From Eledone cirrhosa (taxonomy: Eukaryota): 64,000 nucleotides of DNA. The translations under genes and the position numbers were made by a program. Location of the stretch: the NCBI GenBank assembly GCA_964016885.1, contig OZ024755.1, forward strand, positions 38,874,001-38,938,000, in the 5' to 3' direction. Position 1 is the stretch's first letter. Every line of letters starts with the position of its first letter. The notes below the pieces were generated by a model. That model had not been told where the DNA came from, ran no database searches, and worked only from the letters and a program-made list of their open reading frames with translations. This document shows positions 1,385 to 64,000 of the stretch, one piece after another.

Positions 1385-1484
1385 GGGGTCCCGACTCTTT
1401 TCCTATTACCCACTCTACTACCCTAAGTATCGAGTACTCTGGTGAGTTATGGTCCACCTAGTTCCTTACCACACCTTCTTTGTT
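1385..1484 (+). mobile_element. 3' tail of a short hammerhead-associated (PLE-derived) element; inverted homolog of 10052-10149
   Basis: GGGGTC...TTCCTATTACCCACTCTACTACCCTAAGTATCGAGTACTCTGGTGAGTTATGGTCCACCTAGTTCCTTACCACA is the near-exact reverse complement of 10052-10149. It ends in (TA)n. Confidence 0.8.
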
Positions 1485-1486
1485 GA

Positions 1487-1525
<39 letters not shown>

Positions 1526-1527
<2 letters not shown>

Positions 1528-1760
1528 CATCATCATCATCATCGTTTAACGTCCATATTCCACGCTTGCATGGGTTTGGACGGGAGTTTTCCCACTTGAG
1601 GCAAGAGTGGTTGTCTTGCTCGCATAGGACTGTCTGGCGGGTTTTCTACGGCTGGATGCCCTTCCTAACACCAACCACGTTTACAGTGTGGACTGGGACG
1701 TTTTTACTGTGTTACCTACACGGTCACATGGACTGTGTGTTTTTTTTTTTGTCGTGACAC
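1526..1760 (-). mobile_element. SINE-like repeat with (ATG)n tail and conserved GGAAGGGCATCCAGCCGTAGAAAA core (MetaSINE-like)
   Basis: Minus strand has GTGGTTGGTGTTAGGAAGGGCATCCAGCCGTAGAAAA and ends ...CCGTCCAAACCCATGCAAGCGTGGAATATGGACGTTAAACGATGATGATGATG, a LINE-type 3' tail with ATG repeats. The 5' boundary is approximate. Confidence 0.6.
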
Positions 1761-1993
1761 CTACACGACCTCGTTTGTTTCGGGCTGGATGTTGTGGTAC
1801 CAACATAACTTTACATTGTATATATATATATATATATAGAATATTTAAGTACCGAGAGAGAGAAAAGAAGACATAAGCGATACATATATTATTTGCCAAA
1901 AGCTTGTACAGATGTACTCAATACTTGTGCCTACAGGGTTAAATATTAGAAGCGGTAATATCTAGCGGGCGAGAATATAAGCAGAGCGGTTAC

Positions 1994-2159
1994 AAGTGAA
2001 ATGAATACAAAGGAGTATATACCGTTAAAACATGTTTATATAAAAAAAATGCACTTACGTACGTTTCGCCCAAAAAGGGCTTCTCAAGGGCATAGAAGAC
2101 AAAAAAATGATCAGTACCTGACCCAGGTGGGGTTTTAAGGTTAAGTTTACATCAGAGTT
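1994..2159 (-). repeat. Inverted pseudo-LTR (left copy)
   Basis: AAGTGAAATGAATACAAAGGAGTATATACCG...GGTTAAGTTTACATCAGAGTT matches the reverse complement of 5241-5403, with a few substitutions and homopolymer length differences. Confidence 0.95.
2049..2093 (-). ncRNA. Minimal type-I hammerhead ribozyme motif, U3-A8 core variant (left pLTR)
   Basis: Minus strand: ATGCCC-TTGAGAA-GCCC(TTTTT)GGGC-GAAA-CGTACG-TA/AGTGCAT. Helix II is 4 bp, helix III is palindromic, the cleavage triplet is GUA, and helix I is imperfect. Confidence 0.7.
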
Positions 2160-2188
2160 ATAGTAGAGCACTATACTTTATTTGCAAT

Positions 2189-4977
2189 ATGATGGAGAAT
2201 CAGCCGTTACCCATGTCTCTCAAGTGTATCCCCTTACCTAGCAGAAAAACATACATCAAGCAACTTATAGACGCCACTAACTCGTTTATACGGAGGGTAA
2301 GATGGAAGGCCTACCACCTTGATAAGGACACCCGTAACCTTCTTCCAGAACCGAAAGAGAGATACGGCTTCAAAACGTACCGAAACCAACCGCACAACAC
2401 CCTGCTGGAGCTCTTTGAGGAAGACTTGCTGAAACTGATCAGAAACATCAAGTTTAAGAGTAAACGCCAATGCAGTAATCCATTCCCAACGCACTCATTA
2501 CCAAGATCAAGAGCGACCCACACCTCTTCGTTACCTCTGACAAAACCAAGAAGCTGTACAAGATGGACGCGAGCAAGTACAAACAATTCATTTATAAAGA
2601 ACTACACAAAAATTATTTAAAAAACGCCCATTAGTACCTTAAATGACATAAATAGGGTAGGGAAGGATATAGTTACTAGCTTAGACATAGATAAGTACAC
2701 CAACCCTTATGTCCCTCTGACACCTAGATTCTCTCTTAAGGATCACAAATATAACTTTAATGAAAACCCCTCTATTAGACTAATATGTCCCTCTACATCG
2801 GATACAGGTAAAATTAGTAAAGTGATCCTGGATAGATTACTACTAGAACTTAATAGCAAAGCCAAGGTCAGTCTCTGGAGCAACACCGACCAGGTCATTA
2901 ATTGGTTCACGGAGTTGCCTGATAAAGCAACTCTCAAGTTCATCCAGTTTGACATAGACAGCAACTACGCCTCGATCTCCCCCATACTCTTAAATAAGGC
3001 ACTTAACTTAGCTAAGTCTAATACTAGCCTCACTAAAAAAGAGATAGATATAGTGCTCGCAGTGCGTAGAACTATTATCAAATTCGAAGGCTCCTATTGG
3101 ACCAGAACCAACCGTCCTGATAACTTCGATATCACGATGGGGTCCAGTGACTTGGCGCAAGTGACCGACCTGGTCGATATATACCTCCTCCATAGACTTA
3201 GAGACGAGATACCGGCCCTACAAGGAGGTGTATATAGGGACGATGTCCTATTTACTGTTAGAAACCATAGCCCTCGCAGGATAGAGAACCTTAACAAGCG
3301 CATACACAGGTTCTTCAAGTCATATGGCTTGTCCGTGACTATAGACCTCAACCACCAGATAGTCAACTTCCTGGATGTGACTCTGGAGTTGAGTACGGGC
3401 CTATACAAACCATACCATAAACCCGGCGAGATTCTATCTTATATAAACTATGCTTCTAACCCTAACTCTAGGTCTACTCTCAACTCCATAGTATATAGCA
3501 TATCCCATAGGATCTCGAGGCTCTCCGCAAACGAGGATATCTTCAACCAAGCGGCCGAATACTACAATAAGGTATTGCTAAATGCCGGAATTAAGCGGAG
3601 AATCTCCTATATCCCTAACGCTAGCTCTAGAAACCAACCCCACCATAGGACTAATGTTATAGTAAGCCATACCTATAACCGAGTACGCAGCGGCCCAGAC
3701 AGAGTCAAGAACTATAGTATAGAGAATCACACTAAGGAACTTGGTCAAACCGTTAATTACATGAGTGGTGGCCATGATACGCCACAGCACAATAAGGGTC
3801 ACCAGATTCGTAACGCTAGCCGCTGTAGCCTGCTAGAATTATTCCCTAACTATAAGATTAACAATGGCGGTGGCTTATTACCAACGCCCTCCAACCGGCG
3901 TCTAGCTACACAAAAGTAACGGAAGGAAGGCGCGGCCACCCGACTATAAAGTGAAGGGGACGCATAACTGGCTACAGCACAATAACAACCATAAGTACAG
4001 TCAACTATGAAGCACAACCCGTAGCAAACCCACGGGGAAACGGAAACGCCACCGTAATGTCCTATGGTCCCCCCCTACTCTCGGAGTGTGACCTCCGACC
4101 TACCGAGGATATTCTTCGAAGCCTTAGAGAAGAAATTCCCACCCATTCATAAATACAGGAAAATACTTAATAAGAACAATATTAAAATATCCTTCTCTAC
4201 CACCCCCAATCTAGCAGACATCATAGGAGCAACTAATCATAGTAAGATCACCGAAACACAGCACCTTAGCACAGATATATCTAGACCCGACAACAACACT
4301 AATAGCCTTAACGTCTCCCTAGCAGCACCCAATAGCCCCGACAGACGAAACCGGCATAACCAAGGTGAGACTGAGGAGTATGCTGGTGACCTGCACGGGT
4401 CACCCACCGGCAACGGAACGGGCTGCGGCGTGCGGAGGGATAATGGTACTACCCCGCAGGCCTTGAGATATAACAGTACCAACGACTGGGATAGAGGCGT
4501 AGATAACAACATAGGTAGCAATAGTAATAGCTTACTTCAGGAACTAGGAGCGACCGTGACAGAAAATGCAACTGTCGTGACAGGGGAAGCTGCCCTCTCA
4601 GAGGAAACTGCCTGACTGATAATGTTATTTATAGGTGCACCATAACTAGCCACAATAGAGTTAAACACTATATAGGGGCTACCTCTGGCCAGTTCAAAAC
4701 TAGATTTCGAACACATCTCCACTCTTTTAGGAACAAACAACTAAGACACTCCACGTCACTTGCCAATTACGTCACTACATTAAAAGACGCCAACATCAGC
4801 TTCTCCACACACTGGGATATTGTCGGTAGGGCTGCACCCTACAATTTCAAGAGGAAGTGCGAGCTTTGCCTCATGGAGCTTTACTATATCATAAGAACAC
4901 CCCCTGAACTGATAAACAGCAGAGCTGAACCGGTCATAAGCTGCAGGCACCGAATAAAGGTGACTTATTTAGGGTGA
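2189..4977 (+). pseudogene. PLE polyprotein (reverse transcriptase + GIY-YIG endonuclease), disrupted by about 5 frameshifts and a stop
   Basis: Motifs in order: N-terminal SLKCIPLPS..FIRRVRWKA..YGFK..FEEDL; SDKT (frame 1, ~2535); LKDHK..NPSIRLICP..GKISKVILD; FDIDS; ITMGSSD; YRDD; NFLDVTL..YKPYHKP; RHRNVLW/PPYS..KKFP.HKYRKILNKNNIKISFS; then the zinc-finger/GIY-YIG. Frameshifts are near 2487, 2618, 3910, 4066 and 4535, with an in-frame TGA at 4008-4010. Confidence 0.9.
4531..4977 (+). pseudogene. GIY-YIG endonuclease domain of the PLE (not in the ORF track)
   Basis: Frame 1 reads KCNCRDRGSCPLRGNCLTDNVIYRCTITSHNRVKHYIGATSGQFKTRFRTHLHSFRNKQLRHSTSLANYV...WDIVGRAAPYNFKRKCELCLME...INSRAEPVISCRHRIKVTYLG*, with the stop TGA at 4975-4977. 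VIY...YIG and the catalytic-type R, E and N residues are present. Confidence 0.92.
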
Positions 4978-5240
4978 GAACCCGCTGTGGCATGAAAACT
5001 ATAAACTGGGTCCCCCTGCCCAAACCATAACACTCCGGCGGGCAGCCAGCGCAATCAAACATCTGTGAACCAAATATGCATCCCAGACCCGGCTCGAACC
5101 GGCAATAGTAAAGCAGTACCCCAAAAATAATAACGCAAAACACCATCATGTGAAGGGGTAAAAAAGCAGTGGGGACAATTATTCAAGCACCGGCCAGAGT
5201 TACTCCTCTCGCTCTGTGGCAGGAACAACACATGTGCATG

Positions 5241-5400
5241 AACTCTGATGTAAACTTAACCTTAAAACCCCTCCTGGGTCACGTACTGATCATTTTTTGT
5301 CTTCTATGCCCTTGAGAAGCCCTTTTTGGGCGAAACGTACGAAGGTGCATTTTTTATATAAACATGTTTTAACGGTATATACTCCTTTGTATCCATTTCA

Positions 5401-5403
<3 letters not shown>
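5241..5403 (+). repeat. Pseudo-LTR (right, sense copy)
   Basis: Reverse complement of 1994-2159; ends directly in (TA)n. Confidence 0.95.
5306..5350 (+). ncRNA. Minimal hammerhead motif, U3-A8 variant (right pLTR; U16.1 mutated to A)
   Basis: ATGCCC-TTGAGAA-GCCC(TTTTT)GGGC-GAAA-CGTACG-AA-GGTGCAT. This matches the left copy except that GTA is GAA at the cleavage triplet, so it is probably inactive. Confidence 0.6.
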
Positions 5404-5458
<55 letters not shown>

Positions 5459-5461
<3 letters not shown>

Positions 5462-5648
5462 ATAATAATAAATGTGAAGACTAAAATCCAAAGAGGGCTC
5501 GATAAGGATAAATATATATCAAATATATAAGAACCCTAGAGCAAATATTTATTAAAATAACAGATTAAAGTTTAAGCAAAGAATCGCTGGTTTCGCCCTT
5601 AACGGGATCCTCAGCGATTCTTTGCTTAAACTTTAATGTTATTTTAAT
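5459..5648 (-). mobile_element. Short fold-back element centred on a hammerhead-like core
   Basis: Inverted arms of about 38 bp at 5550-5589 and 5612-5648. The minus-strand centre is CTGAGGA-TCCC(GTTAA)GGGC-GAAA-C. A tail extends to 5459. It is flanked by (TA)n and has homologs at 8343-8404 and 8668-8718. Confidence 0.7.
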
Positions 5649-5909
5649 ATATATATATATATATATATGCGAGAGAGAGAGAGGTTGCTGAATGGCGACT
5701 GAGTTAAGTGTTAGGTTAAACAAATGGCTGGGAGGTGTATGTTTAAACAATATACATTTTTAAACTATAGGATTAAATAAATGTCTGGTAAAGACAGACT
5801 GTTTCTCAGTTTAATATGTTTAATGTTTATTTTACAGCTATTAATTCTCGTAATATATTGAAGAAAAACTCAGGAAAATAAACACTACTTATCGTTTACG
5901 GTATATCTA

Positions 5910-6270
5910 TCTATATACTACTAAAACTCTGTGATTTCTTCATTGCCTGTCTGTAATGTAATACAGCCAAAACGGCAATTAATGGGAATACTTTGAAAGG
6001 AAGTTGCCCCTGAAATGGGAATACAAATGGAATAAAACACGTTTCGCGTAATTCGGAGCACAGGTTCCCGAGATACGGGTTTTTTCCGGGTACCTTCACA
6101 AACACAGAGAGAGAAGGATAGAGAGAAAGAAATAGTGGTTGTGAGAGAGTAGAATGAAAGAGAGACATGTCTGTGTACATTTTAATTATTTAAAAATTAT
6201 TTTTAAGTGAACATGATTTAAAGAAAGTATCTTTAAGTGGACGTGACCCAACGGGTCACAGGTGGTCTAG
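5910..6270 (+). mobile_element. Non-autonomous Helitron-like element
   Basis: 5' end A|TCTATATACTACTAAAA. 3' end has hairpin GTGACCC-AAC-GGGTCAC (6243-6259), a 7-nt spacer, then CTAG|T (6267-6270). These are the standard Helitron TC...hairpin-CTRR termini in an AT target. Confidence 0.7.
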
Positions 6271-6344
6271 TAATTATATTATATTATATATATTATTATA
6301 TGGTCTAGTATTTATATAACAACAAAGTGTGCTTCCTTTTACTT

Positions 6345-6765
6345 GTTGATATTACATCCAACCCAGAATCGAAGAGATCGGTGACAATAACAAAATTAAT
6401 TTTGGATTTCTGTCCCCGATTCCCTTTATACCATTTGTATTTATGGATACCTTTCTTTTGAATGAATGTGTTCATAATAGAGAACTGATTACCAGAACAG
6501 AAGTCTAATAAGGCCTCTCTGTTCATATTTAGATTGGGATCTCCGTTGTGAGATGGTCAGGGCGAATATGTGCATTGAAGACTTCTATTAGGATATGTGG
6601 CTCCCAGTCTTAACTATAGCTAATACTGCAGTGAAGGATCGATATTTGGGTTATGTTTGGTGCATAAACCTGTACCACCCACAGAGAACTTTCTTTCAAC
6701 TTAAACGTAAGAGGCATATCGTCCCTCCCCCATGGGATCCCATTCATAAAACATTCTGGCAGCTG
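6345..6765 (-). pseudogene. Fragment of an RTE-like LINE apurinic-type (APE) endonuclease
   Basis: Minus-strand pieces read KLKESSLWVVQVYAPN...LIEVFNAHI (degenerate GDFNAHV)...NREALLDFCSGNQFSIMNTFIQKKGIHKYKWY...QKSKINFVIV (degenerate SxIDF). These are exonuclease-endonuclease-phosphatase family motifs. Confidence 0.75.
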
Positions 6766-6808
6766 GGGGGAATGGGGGGAGTTGTGCACTCATTTCTAGC
6801 GCCACACC

Positions 6809-6873
<65 letters not shown>

Positions 6874-7122
6874 GTTAAACAATATTCAATGATTATGTCA
6901 AAGAATGAGTTTTACAGTAGATTGGAAGCACTCAACGAAAAAAAAAATTTCTGGAGTTGTTCTTTTGATCAATTACATTTTATTATACATATTTCGGATG
7001 TACAACAGTACGTCCTCATCAGACAAAATATAATGATACATGACATACCCTGACATGTTAAATGGTTAAGATTTAATCAAGGTAGTGATTAACCCAAGAG
7101 AAAATTTTACTTATATCCCATC

Positions 7123-7167
7123 TAATATATATATATACATATATATATATGTATATATGTCTATATG

Positions 7168-7226
<59 letters not shown>

Positions 7227-7394
7227 ATATATATGTATATATGTATATATATATACATATATACATATACACAAACACGTGCGTACACATGCATATGTAA
7301 GTATATAAGTTATGCATATATTTATACATACAAACATTTCCACACACACATGTATGTGCTTATATATGTTTGACGATCCTACTTGTTTGTTTGC

Positions 7395-7434
<40 letters not shown>
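7123..7434. repeat. Compound (TA)n/(TATG)n/(CA)n microsatellite region
   Basis: Directly visible dinucleotide tracts; the source of the YIYI/THTH ORFs. Confidence 0.95.
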
Positions 7435-7435
<1 letters not shown>

Positions 7436-7444
7436 TTATATATA

Positions 7445-7774
7445 CAATGATATTAAATAAATGGAAACTACATTTACAAAACCATATTTATTCTATTATA
7501 TATATTTCAAGGGTACCAAAAACTTTGGTACGCTTTCATCAGATAAAATTCAAAGTGTGTTTTATAAATGTTGACATAACCAAGGAAAACATACCTTATC
7601 AGTGGAATATTCCTTGGATACGTATTCCACTATCCAAGGAATACTTCAACTGATAAGGTATGTTCCTTGGATATGTCAGATGAATGCGTACCAAAGTTTT
7701 TGGTACCCTTGAAATATATATAATAGAATAAATATGGTTTTATAAATATAGTTTCCATTTATTTAAAATCATTG
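7445..7774. mobile_element. 330-bp fold-back (palindromic) element with hammerhead motifs in both arms
   Basis: 7445-7620 is the reverse complement of 7631-7774, around a 10-nt loop CGTATTCCAC. The right arm lacks ~28 nt present in the left arm. A tail continues to about 7820. Confidence 0.9.
7490..7549 (-). ncRNA. Type-I hammerhead ribozyme, canonical core
   Basis: Minus strand: ATTTTAT-CTGATGA-AAGCGTACCA(AAGTTT..)TGGTACCCTT-GAAA-TATATA-TA/ATAGAAT. Helix I is 7 bp with one G-U, helix II is ~9 bp with one C-C mismatch, helix III is palindromic and minimal, and the cleavage triplet is AUA. Confidence 0.8.
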
Positions 7775-8226
7775 AATATTTACTCCAGAAATCTGTCGAG
7801 TGCTCTGAATCAGTTATAAATATTTATATTTGTTGAATTACCAACAAACTGAATATCCCTTCTGCTTACATTTATATATACATTTATATATATATCTTTT
7901 ACTATTCCACAATGCTTCAAGCAAACTTCAATACTCTCTTATATATATATCTATATATCTAAAACAGAGAATGTCTGTAGGTCCGAACACTAAAACTCGA
8001 GAACCACCCAACCGATTATTTTCAAACTTTACACATGTAATATTTATGGTCCTGTGAAAACATTATCAATGCCCTGGGGACTGCATTAGGTGATTTAGCA
8101 ATCTCTCTCTATAATTCTTGATACATAGATATAACGTTTCGCCCTTATAATATCTGTATATGTCTGGCTGTCTGCATTACGACATTATGACTTAGCTGTG
8201 TATGTGTATATATATGTATATATATA

Positions 8227-8286
<60 letters not shown>

Positions 8287-8342
8287 TGGAACGTTTTTCG
8301 AAATATTTACTTCTGCGTTCACAGATTGATTTTTTTTAGTTT

Positions 8343-8403
8343 CAGAAGATCCCGTTATGGGTGAAACAGCGATTCTTTGCTTAAACTTTAATTTGTTATT
8401 TTG

Positions 8404-8404
<1 letters not shown>
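8343..8404 (+). mobile_element. Second copy of the hammerhead-like core family seen at 5550-5614
   Basis: CAGAAGA-TCCC(GTTAT)GGGT-GAAA-CAGCGATTCTTTGCTTAAACTTTAATTTGTTATTTTGA aligns with the minus strand of 5551-5614. Core U4 is mutated. Confidence 0.7.
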
Positions 8405-8459
<55 letters not shown>

Positions 8460-8552
8460 TGAATGAATGAATAACAACACAATCGGTATATATATATATG
8501 CGTACATACAAACATACATTCATTCATTCATTCATACATACACATACATACA

Positions 8553-8597
<45 letters not shown>

Positions 8598-8667
8598 CTT
8601 TATATTCGTGTACAGAAATTCTTGCATACACAATAACAAAATATAAACAAACGAATTTATTTCACGA

Positions 8668-8718
8668 GGCTCGATAAGGATAAATATATATCAAATATAT
8701 AAGAACCCTAGAGCAAAT
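8668..8718. repeat. 51-bp exact repeat of 5496-5546
   Basis: GGCTCGATAAGGATAAATATATATCAAATATATAAGAACCCTAGAGCAAAT is present at both positions. Confidence 0.95.
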
Positions 8719-8745
8719 CCCGAGTAACGCCGGGCCATTCTCCTA

Positions 8746-8790
<45 letters not shown>

Positions 8791-8879
8791 ATATATATAT
8801 GTAATGGATGTGTGTGTATATTTAGGCGAGTTATCGATTGTTAATAGACTGGCTGGAGCAAAAACACGCTTTTGTTTAC

Positions 8880-8914
<35 letters not shown>

Positions 8915-9287
8915 TATATATATGTGTAAAAGGTAAACAGAAATAACCACACAATCGGTATATATATATATATATGCGTACATACAAACATACACACGCG
9001 CATATACATACATACACACACATACATACAAACATAAACATACGTAGACACATGTCTATGTATATAGTTGTTATATAATGTAATAGGTAAATTACGGAGA
9101 GTAAAGTTGTAGGAAATGTTGTGATTATGTGGCAATCTCAGACGTATCGGAACCTCGGTCTGTTCTCTCTCTGTTGTCAGACAGACTCTTCGTCGTCTGT
9201 GAGGAATAGAAAACATCAACAATACAAAACAAACGGAACAACACAGAACAGTAGAACAGAATAAAGGAAGCCATCCAGAAAGTCAAC

Positions 9288-9324
9288 ATATATATATATA
9301 TATATATTACACACACACACACAC

Positions 9325-9365
<41 letters not shown>

Positions 9366-9377
9366 CACACACACACA

Positions 9378-9417
<40 letters not shown>

Positions 9418-9563
9418 CACACACACACACACATTATATATATATATATATATATATATTACATTTTATATATATATATATATATATATTACATTATATA
9501 TATATATATATATATATTACATTATATATATATATATATTACATTATATATATATATATATAC

Positions 9564-9651
<88 letters not shown>

Positions 9652-9765
9652 ATATATAGTTTAAGTATAAAGGAATAAAGAGTCAGTGTTGCATAATAAC
9701 TTTTTTCTTTACACCTAAACACACACACACACACACACACACAGAATACATACATAAATAAATAA

Positions 9766-9814
<49 letters not shown>
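9288..9814. repeat. Compound (TA)n-TTA(CA)n microsatellite with a higher-order unit
   Basis: Repeated (TA)n-TTACACAC.../TTACAT units, followed by (CA)n, (TAAA)n and (TA)n. Confidence 0.95.
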
Positions 9815-9819
<5 letters not shown>

Positions 9820-9997
9820 GACGTAAAATAAGAAAATTATAAAAATTAACTTACTTACTAATTTTCTTATTTTACGTCTTTCATATAATTGTTCTGCATC
9901 CCCATGCATTGAACCACAAAGTTACTAAGACAAAACCTATATATTTGCTGGCATAGGTATACATCTGTATATATATATGTTAGTAGATATACTAATT

Positions 9998-10051
<54 letters not shown>

Positions 10052-10053
<2 letters not shown>

Positions 10054-10229
10054 CGAAGGAAATGTGGTAAGGAACCAGGTGGACCATAACGCACCAAAGT
10101 ACTCGATACTTAGGGTAGTAGAGTGGGTAATAGGAACAAGTAAGACCCCGACGGCGGAGTATAGAATTAGTATAGAATTAGCCGTCGAAACGGCTTGAGC
10201 TCAGCCGTCGGGGTCTTACTTGTTCCTAT
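10052..10229. mobile_element. Fold-back element containing the 3' half of a hammerhead
   Basis: Perfect 26-bp inverted arms at 10130-10155 and 10204-10229. Plus strand reads GCCGTC-GAAA-CGGCT(TGAGCTC)AGCCG-TC/GGGGTCTT, with no CTGANGA box. It is flanked by (TA)n on both sides. Confidence 0.8.
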
Positions 10230-10340
10230 ATATATATATATGTAGCTTTGTAGAATTAGCTTTTAATGAATTCCCTTTTCTATCAACCAATGACCTGCAC
10301 CCATCCCACTCCCCACCCTCTCCTACCACTTGTAGAGACC

Positions 10341-10348
10341 TATAAATA
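10341..10348 (+). promoter_or_regulatory. TATA-box-like motif upstream of the hammerhead (pLTR-like promoter candidate)
   Basis: TATAAATA follows a C-rich tract and lies ~25 nt before helix I of the ribozyme at 10371. This is a motif match only. Confidence 0.35.
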
Positions 10349-10370
10349 CCATATTTATTTTTTGATACCC

Positions 10371-10421
10371 AGATTCCTGATGATTTCTAATGAATGAAAC
10401 AGTTCTAGTCCTGTAGAATCT
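10371..10421 (+). ncRNA. Type-I hammerhead ribozyme, canonical core
   Basis: AGATTC-CTGATGA-TTTC(TAAT)GAAT-GAAA-CAG(TTCTAGTC)CTG-TA/GAATCT. Helix I is a perfect 6 bp, helix III is 4 bp, and predicted GUA cleavage is after 10415. Helix II is 3 bp plus a U-U at the 10.1/11.1 position. Confidence 0.85.
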
Positions 10422-10963
10422 CATCTATATTAAAACTTTTATACTCTGCTATGTATTGAGTACCTTACTTACTGTGGTTACCTCCGATTCAACCCGGAAT
10501 AACGTATATATATATATGTATATATATAATATTTGTTGTATTTTCTTATTTTCCTGTAATCAGTGTAATTGTATTGCCTGTATTAAAACTGTAGATACAA
10601 GTTATATACAACTATTTTCTGATGAGGTCGTTAGTATTGATGTAATTCACTGTTCTTCTTTGATGTGTTATAGTTGTTATAGTTATTCCTAGGTTTTAGT
10701 CTGTGGGACTTCTCTCTTTCAATGGAGACGATCGACGGAGGAACTTGTGGAAGATATAATGGCGCTTCTCTACTGATGAGATCAATGGAATTAGTGGAGT
10801 GCTCCACGTGAACTTCTTCGGGTTGATATCTTCTGTAGATTATAACTAAGTAACCATGAAATTCCAGAGGGAAGCAGATTTACGTAGGAAAAATCTTAAT
10901 GTTGGTTTGTGGAGCCATAGTAGTTGATGATGTGTGGTGTACTGTCTTCCGTCGGGGTGTGTA

Positions 10964-61900: not shown

Positions 61901-64000
61901 GTCACACTAAAGTGTCTTGTATTGGAGTGTCTCACTAAAGTGTCTAGTATTGGGGTGTCACACTAAAGTGTCTTGTATTGGGGTGTCTCACTAAAGTGTC
62001 TTGTATGGGGGTGTCTCACCTAAATGTCTTGTATTGGGGTGTCTCACTAAAGTGTCTTGTATTGAGGGTGTCTTACTAAAGTGTCTTGTATAGAGGTGTC
62101 TCACTAAAGTGTCTTGGGTTGGGGTGTCTCACTAAAGTGTCTTGTATTGGGGTGTCTCACTAAATGTCTTGTATTGGGGTGTCTCACTAAATTGTCTTGT
62201 AATGGGGTGTCTCGCTAAAGGGTCTTGTAGTGGGGTGTCTCACTAAAGTGTCTTGTATTGGGGTGTCTCACTAAAGTGTCTTGTATTGGGGTGTCTCACT
62301 AAAGTGTCTTGTATTGGGGTGTCTCACTAAAGTGTCTTGTATTTGGGTGTCTCACTAAAATGTCTTGTATTGGGGTGTCTCACTAAAGTGTCTTGTATTG
62401 GGGTGTCTCACTAAAGTGTCTTGTATTGGGGTGTCTCACTAAAGTGTCTTGTATTGAGGTGTCTCACCTAAAGTGTCTTGTATTGAGGTGTCTCACCTAA
62501 AGTGTCTTGTATTGGGGTGTCTCACTAAAGTGTCTTGTATTGGGATGTCTCACTAAAGTGTCTTGTATTGAGGTGTCTCACTAAAGTGTTTTGTATTGAG
62601 GTGTCTCACCTAAAGTGTCTTGTATTGGGGTGTCTCACTAAAATGTCTTGTATTGGGGTGTCTCACTAAAGTGTCTTGTATTGGGGTGTCTCACTAAATT
62701 ATCTTGTATTGGGGTGTCTCACTAAAGTCTCTTTTATTGGGGTGTCTCACTAAAGTCTGTTGTATTGGGGTATCCTGTATTGGGGTGTCTCACTAAAGTG
62801 TCTTGTATTGGGGTGTCGCACTAAAATTTCTTGTATTGGGGTGTCACACTAAAGTGTCTTGTGTTGGGGGTGTCTCACTAAAGTCTCTTGTATTGGGGTG
62901 TCTCACTAAAGTGTCTTGTATTGGGGTGTCTCACTACAGTGTCTTGTATTGGGGTGTCTCACTAAAGTGTCTTGTATTGGGGTGTCTCACTAAAATGTCT
63001 TGTATTGGGGTGTCTCACTAAAGTGTCTTGCAGTGGGGTGTCTCACTAAAGTGTCTTGTATTGGGGTGTCTCACCTAAAGTGTCTTGTATTGGCGGTGTC
63101 TCACTAAAGTGTCTTGTATTGGCGGTGTCTCACTAAAGTGTCTTGTATTGGGGTATCTCACTAAAGTGTCTTGTATTGGGGTGTCCTGTATTGGGGTGTC
63201 TCACTAAAGTGTCTTGTATTGGGGTGTCTCACTAAAGTGTCTTGTATTGGTGTGTCTCACTAAAGTGTCTTCTATTGGGGTGTCACACTAAAGTGTCTTG
63301 TATTGGAGTGTCTCACTAAAGTGTCTAGTATTGGGGTGTCACACTAAAGTGTCTTGTATTGGGGTGTCACACTAAAGTGTCTTGTATTGGGGTGTCTCAC
63401 TGAATGTCTTGTATTGAGGTGTCTCACTAAAGTGTCTTGTATTGGGGTGTCTCGCTAAAGTGACTTGTAGTGGTGTGTCTCACTAAAGTGTCTTGTATTG
63501 GGGTGTCTCACTAAAGTGTCTTGTATTGGGGTGTCTCACTAAAGTGTCTTGTATTGGGGTGTCACACTAAAGTGTCTTGTATTGGGTGTCTCACTAAAGT
63601 GTCTTCTAATGCGGTGTCTCACTAAAGCCTCTTGTATTGCGGTGACTCACCTAAATGTCTTGTATTAGGGTGTCTCACTAAATGGTCTTGTATTGGGGTG
63701 TCTCACTAAAATGTCTTGTATTGGGGTGTCACACTAAAATGTCTTGTATTGGGGTGTCTCACTAAAGTGTCTTGTATTGGGGTGTCTCACTAAAGTGTCT
63801 TGTATTGGGGTGTCTCACTAAAGTGTCTTGTATTGGGGTGTCTCACTAAAGTGTCTTGTATTGGGGTGTCTCACTAAAGTGTCTTGTATTGGGGGTGTCT
63901 CACTAAAGTGTCTTGTATTGGGGTGTCTCACTAAAGTGTCTTGTATTGGGGGTGTCTCACTTAAGTGTCTTGTATTGGGGTGTCTCGCTAAAGTGTCTTG
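10964..64000. repeat. 28-bp tandem satellite (TCTCACTAAAGTGTCTTGTATTGGGGTG)n, ~53 kb, ~1,900 copies, running off the window end
   Basis: Continuous head-to-tail monomers in one orientation, with recurring 27-, 29- and 15-bp variants. No unique spacers or insertions were seen. The first monomers at ~10950-11010 are degenerate. Confidence 0.99.

Follow-up and report, generated by a model that had tools for sequence, protein, structure and literature searches.

What gathers short hammerhead-ribozyme pieces from several families into one place, and why should they share a motif with a coding Penelope-like element (PLE) that lies among them? This question is raised by a 64,000-nucleotide stretch of the Eledone cirrhosa genome (assembly GCA_964016885.1, 3.0 Gb; contig OZ024755.1, positions 38,874,001 to 38,938,000), hereafter called the window, whose first ~11 kb consist of repeat-rich animal DNA. 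A preliminary description, made from the letters alone, proposed that the pieces are non-coding ribozyme retroelements or solo pseudo-long terminal repeats (pLTRs), that the coding element is a PLE of the Naiad type, and that the common motif acts in cis, in recognition by the PLE reverse transcriptase or in 3'-end processing. We find that the short pieces are truncated, solo or fold-back pLTR ends of coding Hydra-type PLEs. The fuller reading that we favour, and consider fairly probable, is that these Hydra-clade ends lie in (TA)n and that the motif belongs to a hairpin which likely binds a protein and sets the point at which reverse transcriptase (RT) starts.

All six motif sites named in the preliminary description are real and correctly placed (1427+, 10453+, 10109-, 1924-, 7796+ and 5504-). 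However, what had been presented as a linear motif forms one side, the 3' strand, of a bulged hairpin (two nucleotides, U-N) of the form RCTC-stem-loop-stem-UN-GAGY, and every motif in the window has an upstream partner strand (Table 1). This partner strand had escaped notice, as had a second copy of the hairpin and two further families, D (hammerhead core at 7022-) and M (hairpin at 9891+). The family M hairpin carries a compensatory change in its basal helix. A descriptor of the hairpin additionally matches three unrelated chance sites in the window. Two other identities were considered for the motif and rejected: a splice donor, because the donor position is missing in families B and C and the partner strand covaries, and a palindromic DNA site, because the motif is palindromic in family E only.

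Conservation was tested outside the host genome, using 77 metagenome loci and an alignment of 43 of 74 homologues with the open reading frame (ORF) of an intact relative (locus L169). A hairpin with at least three upper pairs occurs in 23 of 61 leaders, many of which are 5'-incomplete, versus 2 of the 61 reverse complements, in 7 of 19 regions that follow a 3' hammerhead (control, 0/19), and in 12 of 546 ORF windows. With sites set by the 3' strand alone, the partner strand is present at 88 of 102 sense sites versus 15 of 60 antisense sites. The closing pair is Watson-Crick at 78 of those 88 sites, where 42.8 would be expected, and among 61 non-redundant sites it is C-G in 33, U-A in 18, U-G in 1, C-A in 0 and otherwise composed in 9. 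Even with no bulge assumed, all 41 of 41 non-redundant cases close at a bulge length of 2 (none at lengths 0 and 1, four at length 3); the bulge begins with U in 40 of the 41, and its second base is free.

No description of this hairpin was found in the accessible open-access PMC and bioRxiv literature, in keeping with the earlier statement that the motif is not known to have been described. By eye, the hairpin can be seen in the published consensus sequences Hydra-2_Amil, Hydra-1_Ajap and Hydra-2_Ajap (PMC8557442), and five 9-mer terms occur at 7 places in the accessible supplement of that paper, namely 4 in untranslated ends of Hydra elements and 3 in non-Hydra files. The accessible parts of PMC8557442 hold no mention that we found of the hairpin, its doubling or its link to copy ends. 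The bulged cis hairpin of Hydra-clade PLEs has thus apparently gone undescribed so far.

The motif had been placed 3' of the ribozyme, in a tail. This placing is misleading: full-length copies have the motif in their leader, in the order hammerhead, hairpin 1, hairpin 2, ATG. Sufficient upstream sequence is available for 36 leaders, with two copies in 23, one in nine and none in four. The distance from hairpin to ATG is variable (5-91 nt). A conserved unpaired run of 5 nt, which resembles the hairpin's own 5' arm, follows each hairpin on its 3' side in the metagenome loci, and is the sole remnant of hairpin 2 in family F. This run could be a protein contact or could permit alternative pairing between the two hairpins.

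Unlike the distance to ATG, the distance from the hairpin to the ends of copies is tight. Measured on 14 reference leaders, 194 of the 243 copy ends with a (TA)n junction lie 1-8 nt upstream of a hairpin, with modal distances of 2-7 nt. These counts exclude ends without a TA junction, ends below 88% identity and ends at locus edges; duplicates of the window (L001, L032, L131 and L097) and loci of a family F array (L161-163, L239-251) had been dropped beforehand. Ends recur in clusters, of which 14 of 19 lie before a hairpin, whereas 20,000 random draws from TA/AT sites gave 2.6 on average and never more than 9. Copies end at two sites, mostly an inner one before hairpin 1 and an outer one before hairpin 2, and the small share of leader TA/AT sites that serve as ends are those before hairpins. 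On metagenome contigs that hold both ends, 5 of 7 termini lie 0-4 nt before a hairpin and the other two lie at 11 and 21 nt.

For families in which hairpin 2 had not been seen, we predicted that it would lie just beyond the outer end, and this prediction was fixed before loose patterns were searched with reversed patterns as controls. Hairpin 2 was found in five families (E, 336 matches; B, 407; D, 2; C, 26 of 30; M, 95), and the reversed patterns gave 0 matches. In families E and B, nearly all of the matches listed (the first 100 for each) hold the same hairpin. The prediction failed for family F, where one L108 variant of the leader gave 2 matches and a wider pattern gave 127 full leaders. 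The earlier proposal that the motif signals in cis to the PLE enzyme gains support from conservation beyond this genome and from the fixed distance to copy ends, although the putative signal is a bulged structure and the ends lie upstream of it.

We envisage that the RT-endonuclease would bind the hairpin within an RNA that extends through the pLTR and would nick a (TA)n target in DNA. Reverse transcription might then be primed on TA-like template immediately 5' of the hairpin to which the protein is bound, through TA microhomology with the nicked target, and that hairpin would therefore not be copied. A start before hairpin 2 should give a copy with a tail that contains hairpin 1, the tail being the stretch between the two RT starts, and a start before hairpin 1 should give a copy that lacks it. 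One start of each kind would yield lopsided fold-backs. A tail that holds hairpin 1 would explain why the motif is seen 40-90 nt before (TA)n; arms begun at hairpin 1 lack it.

Several observations weigh against this reading. Four of the 36 leaders have no motif and nine have only a single copy. The covariation counts ignore kinship, and C-G predominates in hairpin 2. Folding supports the helix but does so on both strands alike: among 68 sites of each sense, the helix reaches a pair probability above 0.5 at 51 sense and 48 antisense sites, and median pair probabilities are 0.84 and 0.94. The range of 1-8 nt was set after the first end distances had been seen, and loci of families E, B and F were collected with queries that favour outer ends; the prediction of hairpin 2 is the fairer test. 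In families C and G some ends lie 11-13 nt before hairpin 1, and other ends lie far off. No canonical hairpin 2 is present in the 127 full family F leaders, which have the trailing unpaired run only, and yet 27 of 51 family F ends lie at the outer site. Finally, the DNA ends fit an RNA cut at the same place equally well.

Such a cut is the most serious competing explanation. The hairpin might direct cleavage of the RNA a few bases upstream, by a host nuclease or by the element's own protein, so that RT would start at an ordinary 3' end. This predicts identical DNA ends, and the fixed distance between end and hairpin is what one would expect of it, since nucleases typically cut at a set distance from a structure. 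We nonetheless judge it unlikely. The ends scatter over several bases (139-143 in family F), as microhomology priming predicts, and in the PLE Poseidon added 3' sequence left the product unchanged, so that priming there is internal (PMC11167929, accessible parts). Slightly less likely again is a role of the twin hairpins in translation or transcription, through cap-independent initiation or an internal promoter, with ends nearby owing to the TA-rich leader. Both hairpins do sit downstream of the ribozyme cut and upstream of the ATG, ribozyme-cleaved RNA has no cap, and a conserved unpaired run follows each hairpin. However, few of the TA/AT sites in leaders are used as ends, precisely those before hairpins, the distance to ATG varies as noted, and covariation speaks against a site in double-stranded DNA.

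The third alternative is that of the preliminary description, under which the short elements would be non-coding retrozymes, recruiting the enzyme of a coding element through a common 3' motif. It can draw on the 2051 matches to a 31-mer from the family F 3' untranslated region (UTR) versus 127 full leaders, which make short copies far commoner, and on the existence of a tandem array of F ends. Nevertheless, we give it very little chance, and for families A-F it is already refuted; family M lies outside that test. It had been suggested to check whether each family also terminates an RT-coding PLE, and each of families A-F does continue into its own Hydra-type ORF, so the short copies do not form a retrozyme class of their own; they are solo or truncated pLTR ends, in line with the solo pLTRs that the preliminary description named as an alternative. 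At loci picked by leader pattern, an RWK segment lies within 250 nt of the leader on the same strand in 10 of 15 cases for family E, 9 of 10 for F, 9 of 12 for B, 1 of 2 for D and 9 of 10 for C. Families E, F and B also lie downstream of a GIY-YIG domain. Family E leads without interruption from that domain through a 1.2-kb 3' UTR to the hammerhead (L038, and also L044), family B lies downstream of the endonuclease in L146/L262, and family F has a complete pLTR-ORF-pLTR copy with a long microsatellite-rich 3' UTR (L257). The 5' ends of short copies are ragged or inverted, and the window copies occur singly or as fold-backs, not as tandem units with complete hammerheads. The F array holds the (TA)n junction in its units and hence resembles local DNA duplication.

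That array (G000:C1:83679906-83691827) comprises twelve tandem units (~1085 bp) of the F 3' end with the TA junction included, and is probably a local DNA duplication; a rolling-circle multimer was rejected because the units contain the junction and a microsatellite spacer. The family F 3' UTR spans ~2.5-3 kb of mostly mixed TA/TG microsatellite (L252, at G000:C1:2874501-2884000, and L257), so that movement of F would spread microsatellite and hence targets for its own clade. Family E leaders recur with a period of ~3.54 kb at G000:C1:91476593-91487262 and C1:437200348-437210983, which are probably tandem full-length elements.

Judged by its sequence features, the coding element of the window (family A) is a Hydra-clade PLE, and the Naiad label had to be given up. 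In the window copy and in the intact relative the GIY-YIG endonuclease follows the RT at the C terminus, and the Naiad traits of an N-terminal endonuclease, a CxC domain and DKA were not found in either. The RWK motif lies in frame 2111 and DKT, which replaces DKG, in frame 2113, and both occur in relatives. Reading by eye, we recognize a CxCX5C linker, CxxC and CxH near the end, and a GIY-YIG core without the CCHH pair. A Pfam search gave a weak GIY-YIG match (E 0.087, residues 793-825 of 909) and did not recognize the RT. A hammerhead near the 3' end and insertion into (TA)n are further Hydra-clade traits of the element, and canonical hammerheads, which Naiads lack, are present in the window. 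The window copy is broken and has intact relatives with a 910-aa ORF (L169:3979-6711), in which long low-complexity insertions flank the linker on both sides; most homologues have ~700 aa. The Hydra clade is abundant in this genome.

The hammerheads of the window are abundant, as first described, although few are intact. Only 10377+, 7542- and 7022- pass a strict descriptor of the type I hammerhead and possess its core, all of stems I-III and the cleavage triplet; the first two of them had been listed, and the remaining copies are damaged or halves. Cores 2087- and 5312+ are of the U3-A8 kind and each has one damaging change relative to a relative in L030, the core at 5614- is a chimaera created by a fold-back junction, and at 10183+ an inverted arm carries just the 3' half, the complete ribozyme being present in L038 and L177. 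An Rfam scan of the window returned no hammerhead at E<=5, only microsatellite-driven miRNA noise. Across 39 random 10-kb stretches, the descriptor gave 36 matches versus 0, 2 and 4 in three shuffles, and the hairpin gave 32 versus 4-6, so both signals are real and above chance. The hammerhead density is about one match per 11 kb, other clades included. The motif had been expected downstream of hammerheads genome-wide; its strict form follows 3 of the 36 random matches, and many copies end before the motif.

Other features of the ribozymes deserve mention. U3-A8 cores occur in three separate families (A, E and that of L062), and the family E hammerhead has a very long loop II. All 42 of 42 cluster members of family B carry A at position 4 of the genuine core, and the family is abundant and young despite this; self-cleavage by the predicted A4 ribozyme is doubtful. 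Hammerhead clusters 5, 6, 10, 11 and 12 show no such hairpin by eye and perhaps belong to other PLE clades, and clusters 4, 7 and 20 are false matches from AT-rich satellite.

Table 1. Penelope-like element features in the window, by family
Feature	Position	Strand	Details
A, Hydra-type PLE	2160..5402	+	RT, then C-terminal GIY-YIG; ORF 2189-4977
A, ORF of forward copy	2189-4977	+	Broken by frameshifts and stops
A, 5' start of forward copy		+	Within hairpin 2, 3' half at 2164-2169
A, 3' pLTR of forward copy		+	Terminates in (TA)n at inner end site, 6 nt before hairpin 1
A, hammerhead	5303..5360	+	U3-A8 core at 5312; position 16.1 altered in this copy
A, inverted arm with tail	1838..2159	-	Hammerhead core 2087, cleaved after 2056; hairpin 1; (TA)n at outer end
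A, hairpin 1 (long loop)	1916..1987	-	Includes the motif first described at 1914-1924
B, fold-back copy	5459..5646	-	Hairpin 1 at 5542-5497; core 5614 a junction chimaera
B, short inverted arm	~5617-5646	+	Part of fold-back copy 5459..5646
B, copy	8290..8404	+	Core 8343, A at position 4; inner end site before hairpin 1
B, hairpin-1 fragment	8668..8718	-	51 nt identical to 5496-5546
C, fold-back copy	7437..7870	+	Inverted arm 7543-7437 (-) with intact hammerhead at 7542
C, forward part of fold-back	from 7676	+	Hairpin 1 at 7782-7801
D, copy	6868..7040	-	Hammerhead core 7022; hairpin 1 at 6957-6930; newly recognized
E, fragment without ribozyme core	1385..1485	+	Hairpin 1 at 1412-1435; terminates at outer end site
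E, fold-back copy	10053..10226	-	Hairpin 1 at 10124-10101
E, inverted arm	~10172-10226	+	3' half of hammerhead; terminates at inner end site
F, 3' end	10243..10503	+	Hammerhead core 10377, cut after 10415; (TA)n at outer end
F, hairpin 1 of 3' end	10443-10461	+	Part of 3' end 10243..10503
M, tail fragment	9817..9992	+	Hairpin 1 at 9891-9914; newly recognized

In the family C fold-back, the two arms are separated by an 80-bp palindrome (7586-7665). Two putative pieces of short interspersed elements (SINEs) at 1028-1270 resemble cephalopod SINEs. The last 53 kb of the window, from 10967 to its end at 64000, are occupied by a 28-bp satellite with higher-order variants. The families clustered here also adjoin one another at many other loci of the genome, and their piling-up fits a common (TA)n target.

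The short elements themselves are ordinary, and the novelty lies in the hairpin as a sharply testable cis structure. PLE enzymes are the closest relatives of telomerase RT, and what is at issue is how they choose their RNA and an internal start site. A covarying hairpin of 20-30 nt at a fixed distance from both end sites offers a precise and cheap handle for tests. It is also a marker with which Hydra-clade ends can be annotated and truncated PLE ends separated from true retrozymes.

A more adventurous proposal is that a TAR-like arginine-binding bulge is the RNA address for the telomerase-related RT of the Hydra clade, and that its two copies form a two-step counter. We hold this only tentatively and think it somewhat less probable than its converse. 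The hairpin has an invariant bulged U, a free second base and a G-C/A-U/G-C helix, the features of a TAR-type bulge, and these identity elements make arginine read-out a candidate. Speculatively, the U may form a U-A-U triple like that of HIV TAR over the three pairs of this helix, and the bulge may be read by arginines, which might belong to the RWK segment of the clade. A copy begun at hairpin 2 would keep one hairpin and could be copied once more, a copy begun at hairpin 1 would be a dead end, and both hairpins would be regained only by read-through into a pLTR or tandem unit. If true, the counter would account for the tails, the lopsided fold-backs and the retention of partial tandem ends by PLEs, and any RNA supplied with the hairpin would insert at (TA)n.

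Comparison with known systems places these findings in context, within the accessible parts of the sources cited. Like the Hydra clade of PLEs with a C-terminal endonuclease (Craig et al. 2021, PMC8557442), the families described here have RWK, DKT, a CxCX5C linker, a C-terminal GIY-YIG domain, a type I hammerhead near the 3' end, (TA)n targets and inverted 5' arms. They differ in the 910-aa ORF of family A versus ~700 in most homologues, in the 1.2-3 kb 3' UTRs of families E and F, and in U3-A8 and A4 cores that fall outside the File S2 list of that paper. Naiad PLEs share the (TA)n preference and pLTRs, whereas their own N-terminal endonuclease, DKA and lack of a canonical hammerhead have no counterpart in the window element (PMC8557442). 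Metazoan non-LTR retrozymes are likewise short type I hammerhead repeats related to pLTRs, but are defined as protein-free tandem units (PMC7229834; bioRxiv 10.64898/2026.07.22.740005), whereas families A-F join ORFs.

The closest mechanistic parallel is Poseidon PAc of Anolis (Frangieh et al. 2024, PMC11167929), which primes internally on uncleaved RNA at two sites that bound a tail, and which likewise has AT-rich targets and a hammerhead upstream of its start sites. It belongs to another clade, its starts lie inside the ORF in an AC-rich stem-loop, its binding motif has been bracketed only to somewhere in +20 to +172, and a bulged twin hairpin is not among its features as described in the accessible text. 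The parallel in RNA structure is HIV TAR (PMC11885821), whose core comprises the essential U23, a free position 24 and the pairs G26-C39, A27-U38 and G28-C37, and in which a two-nucleotide bulge is natural in HIV-2. The Hydra hairpin likewise presents an invariant bulged U, a free next base and then G-C, A-U and G-C, although here the bulge strand lies 3' of the loop in a permuted arrangement that implies no common ancestry, and for this hairpin the base triple and arginine binding known from TAR are predictions only.

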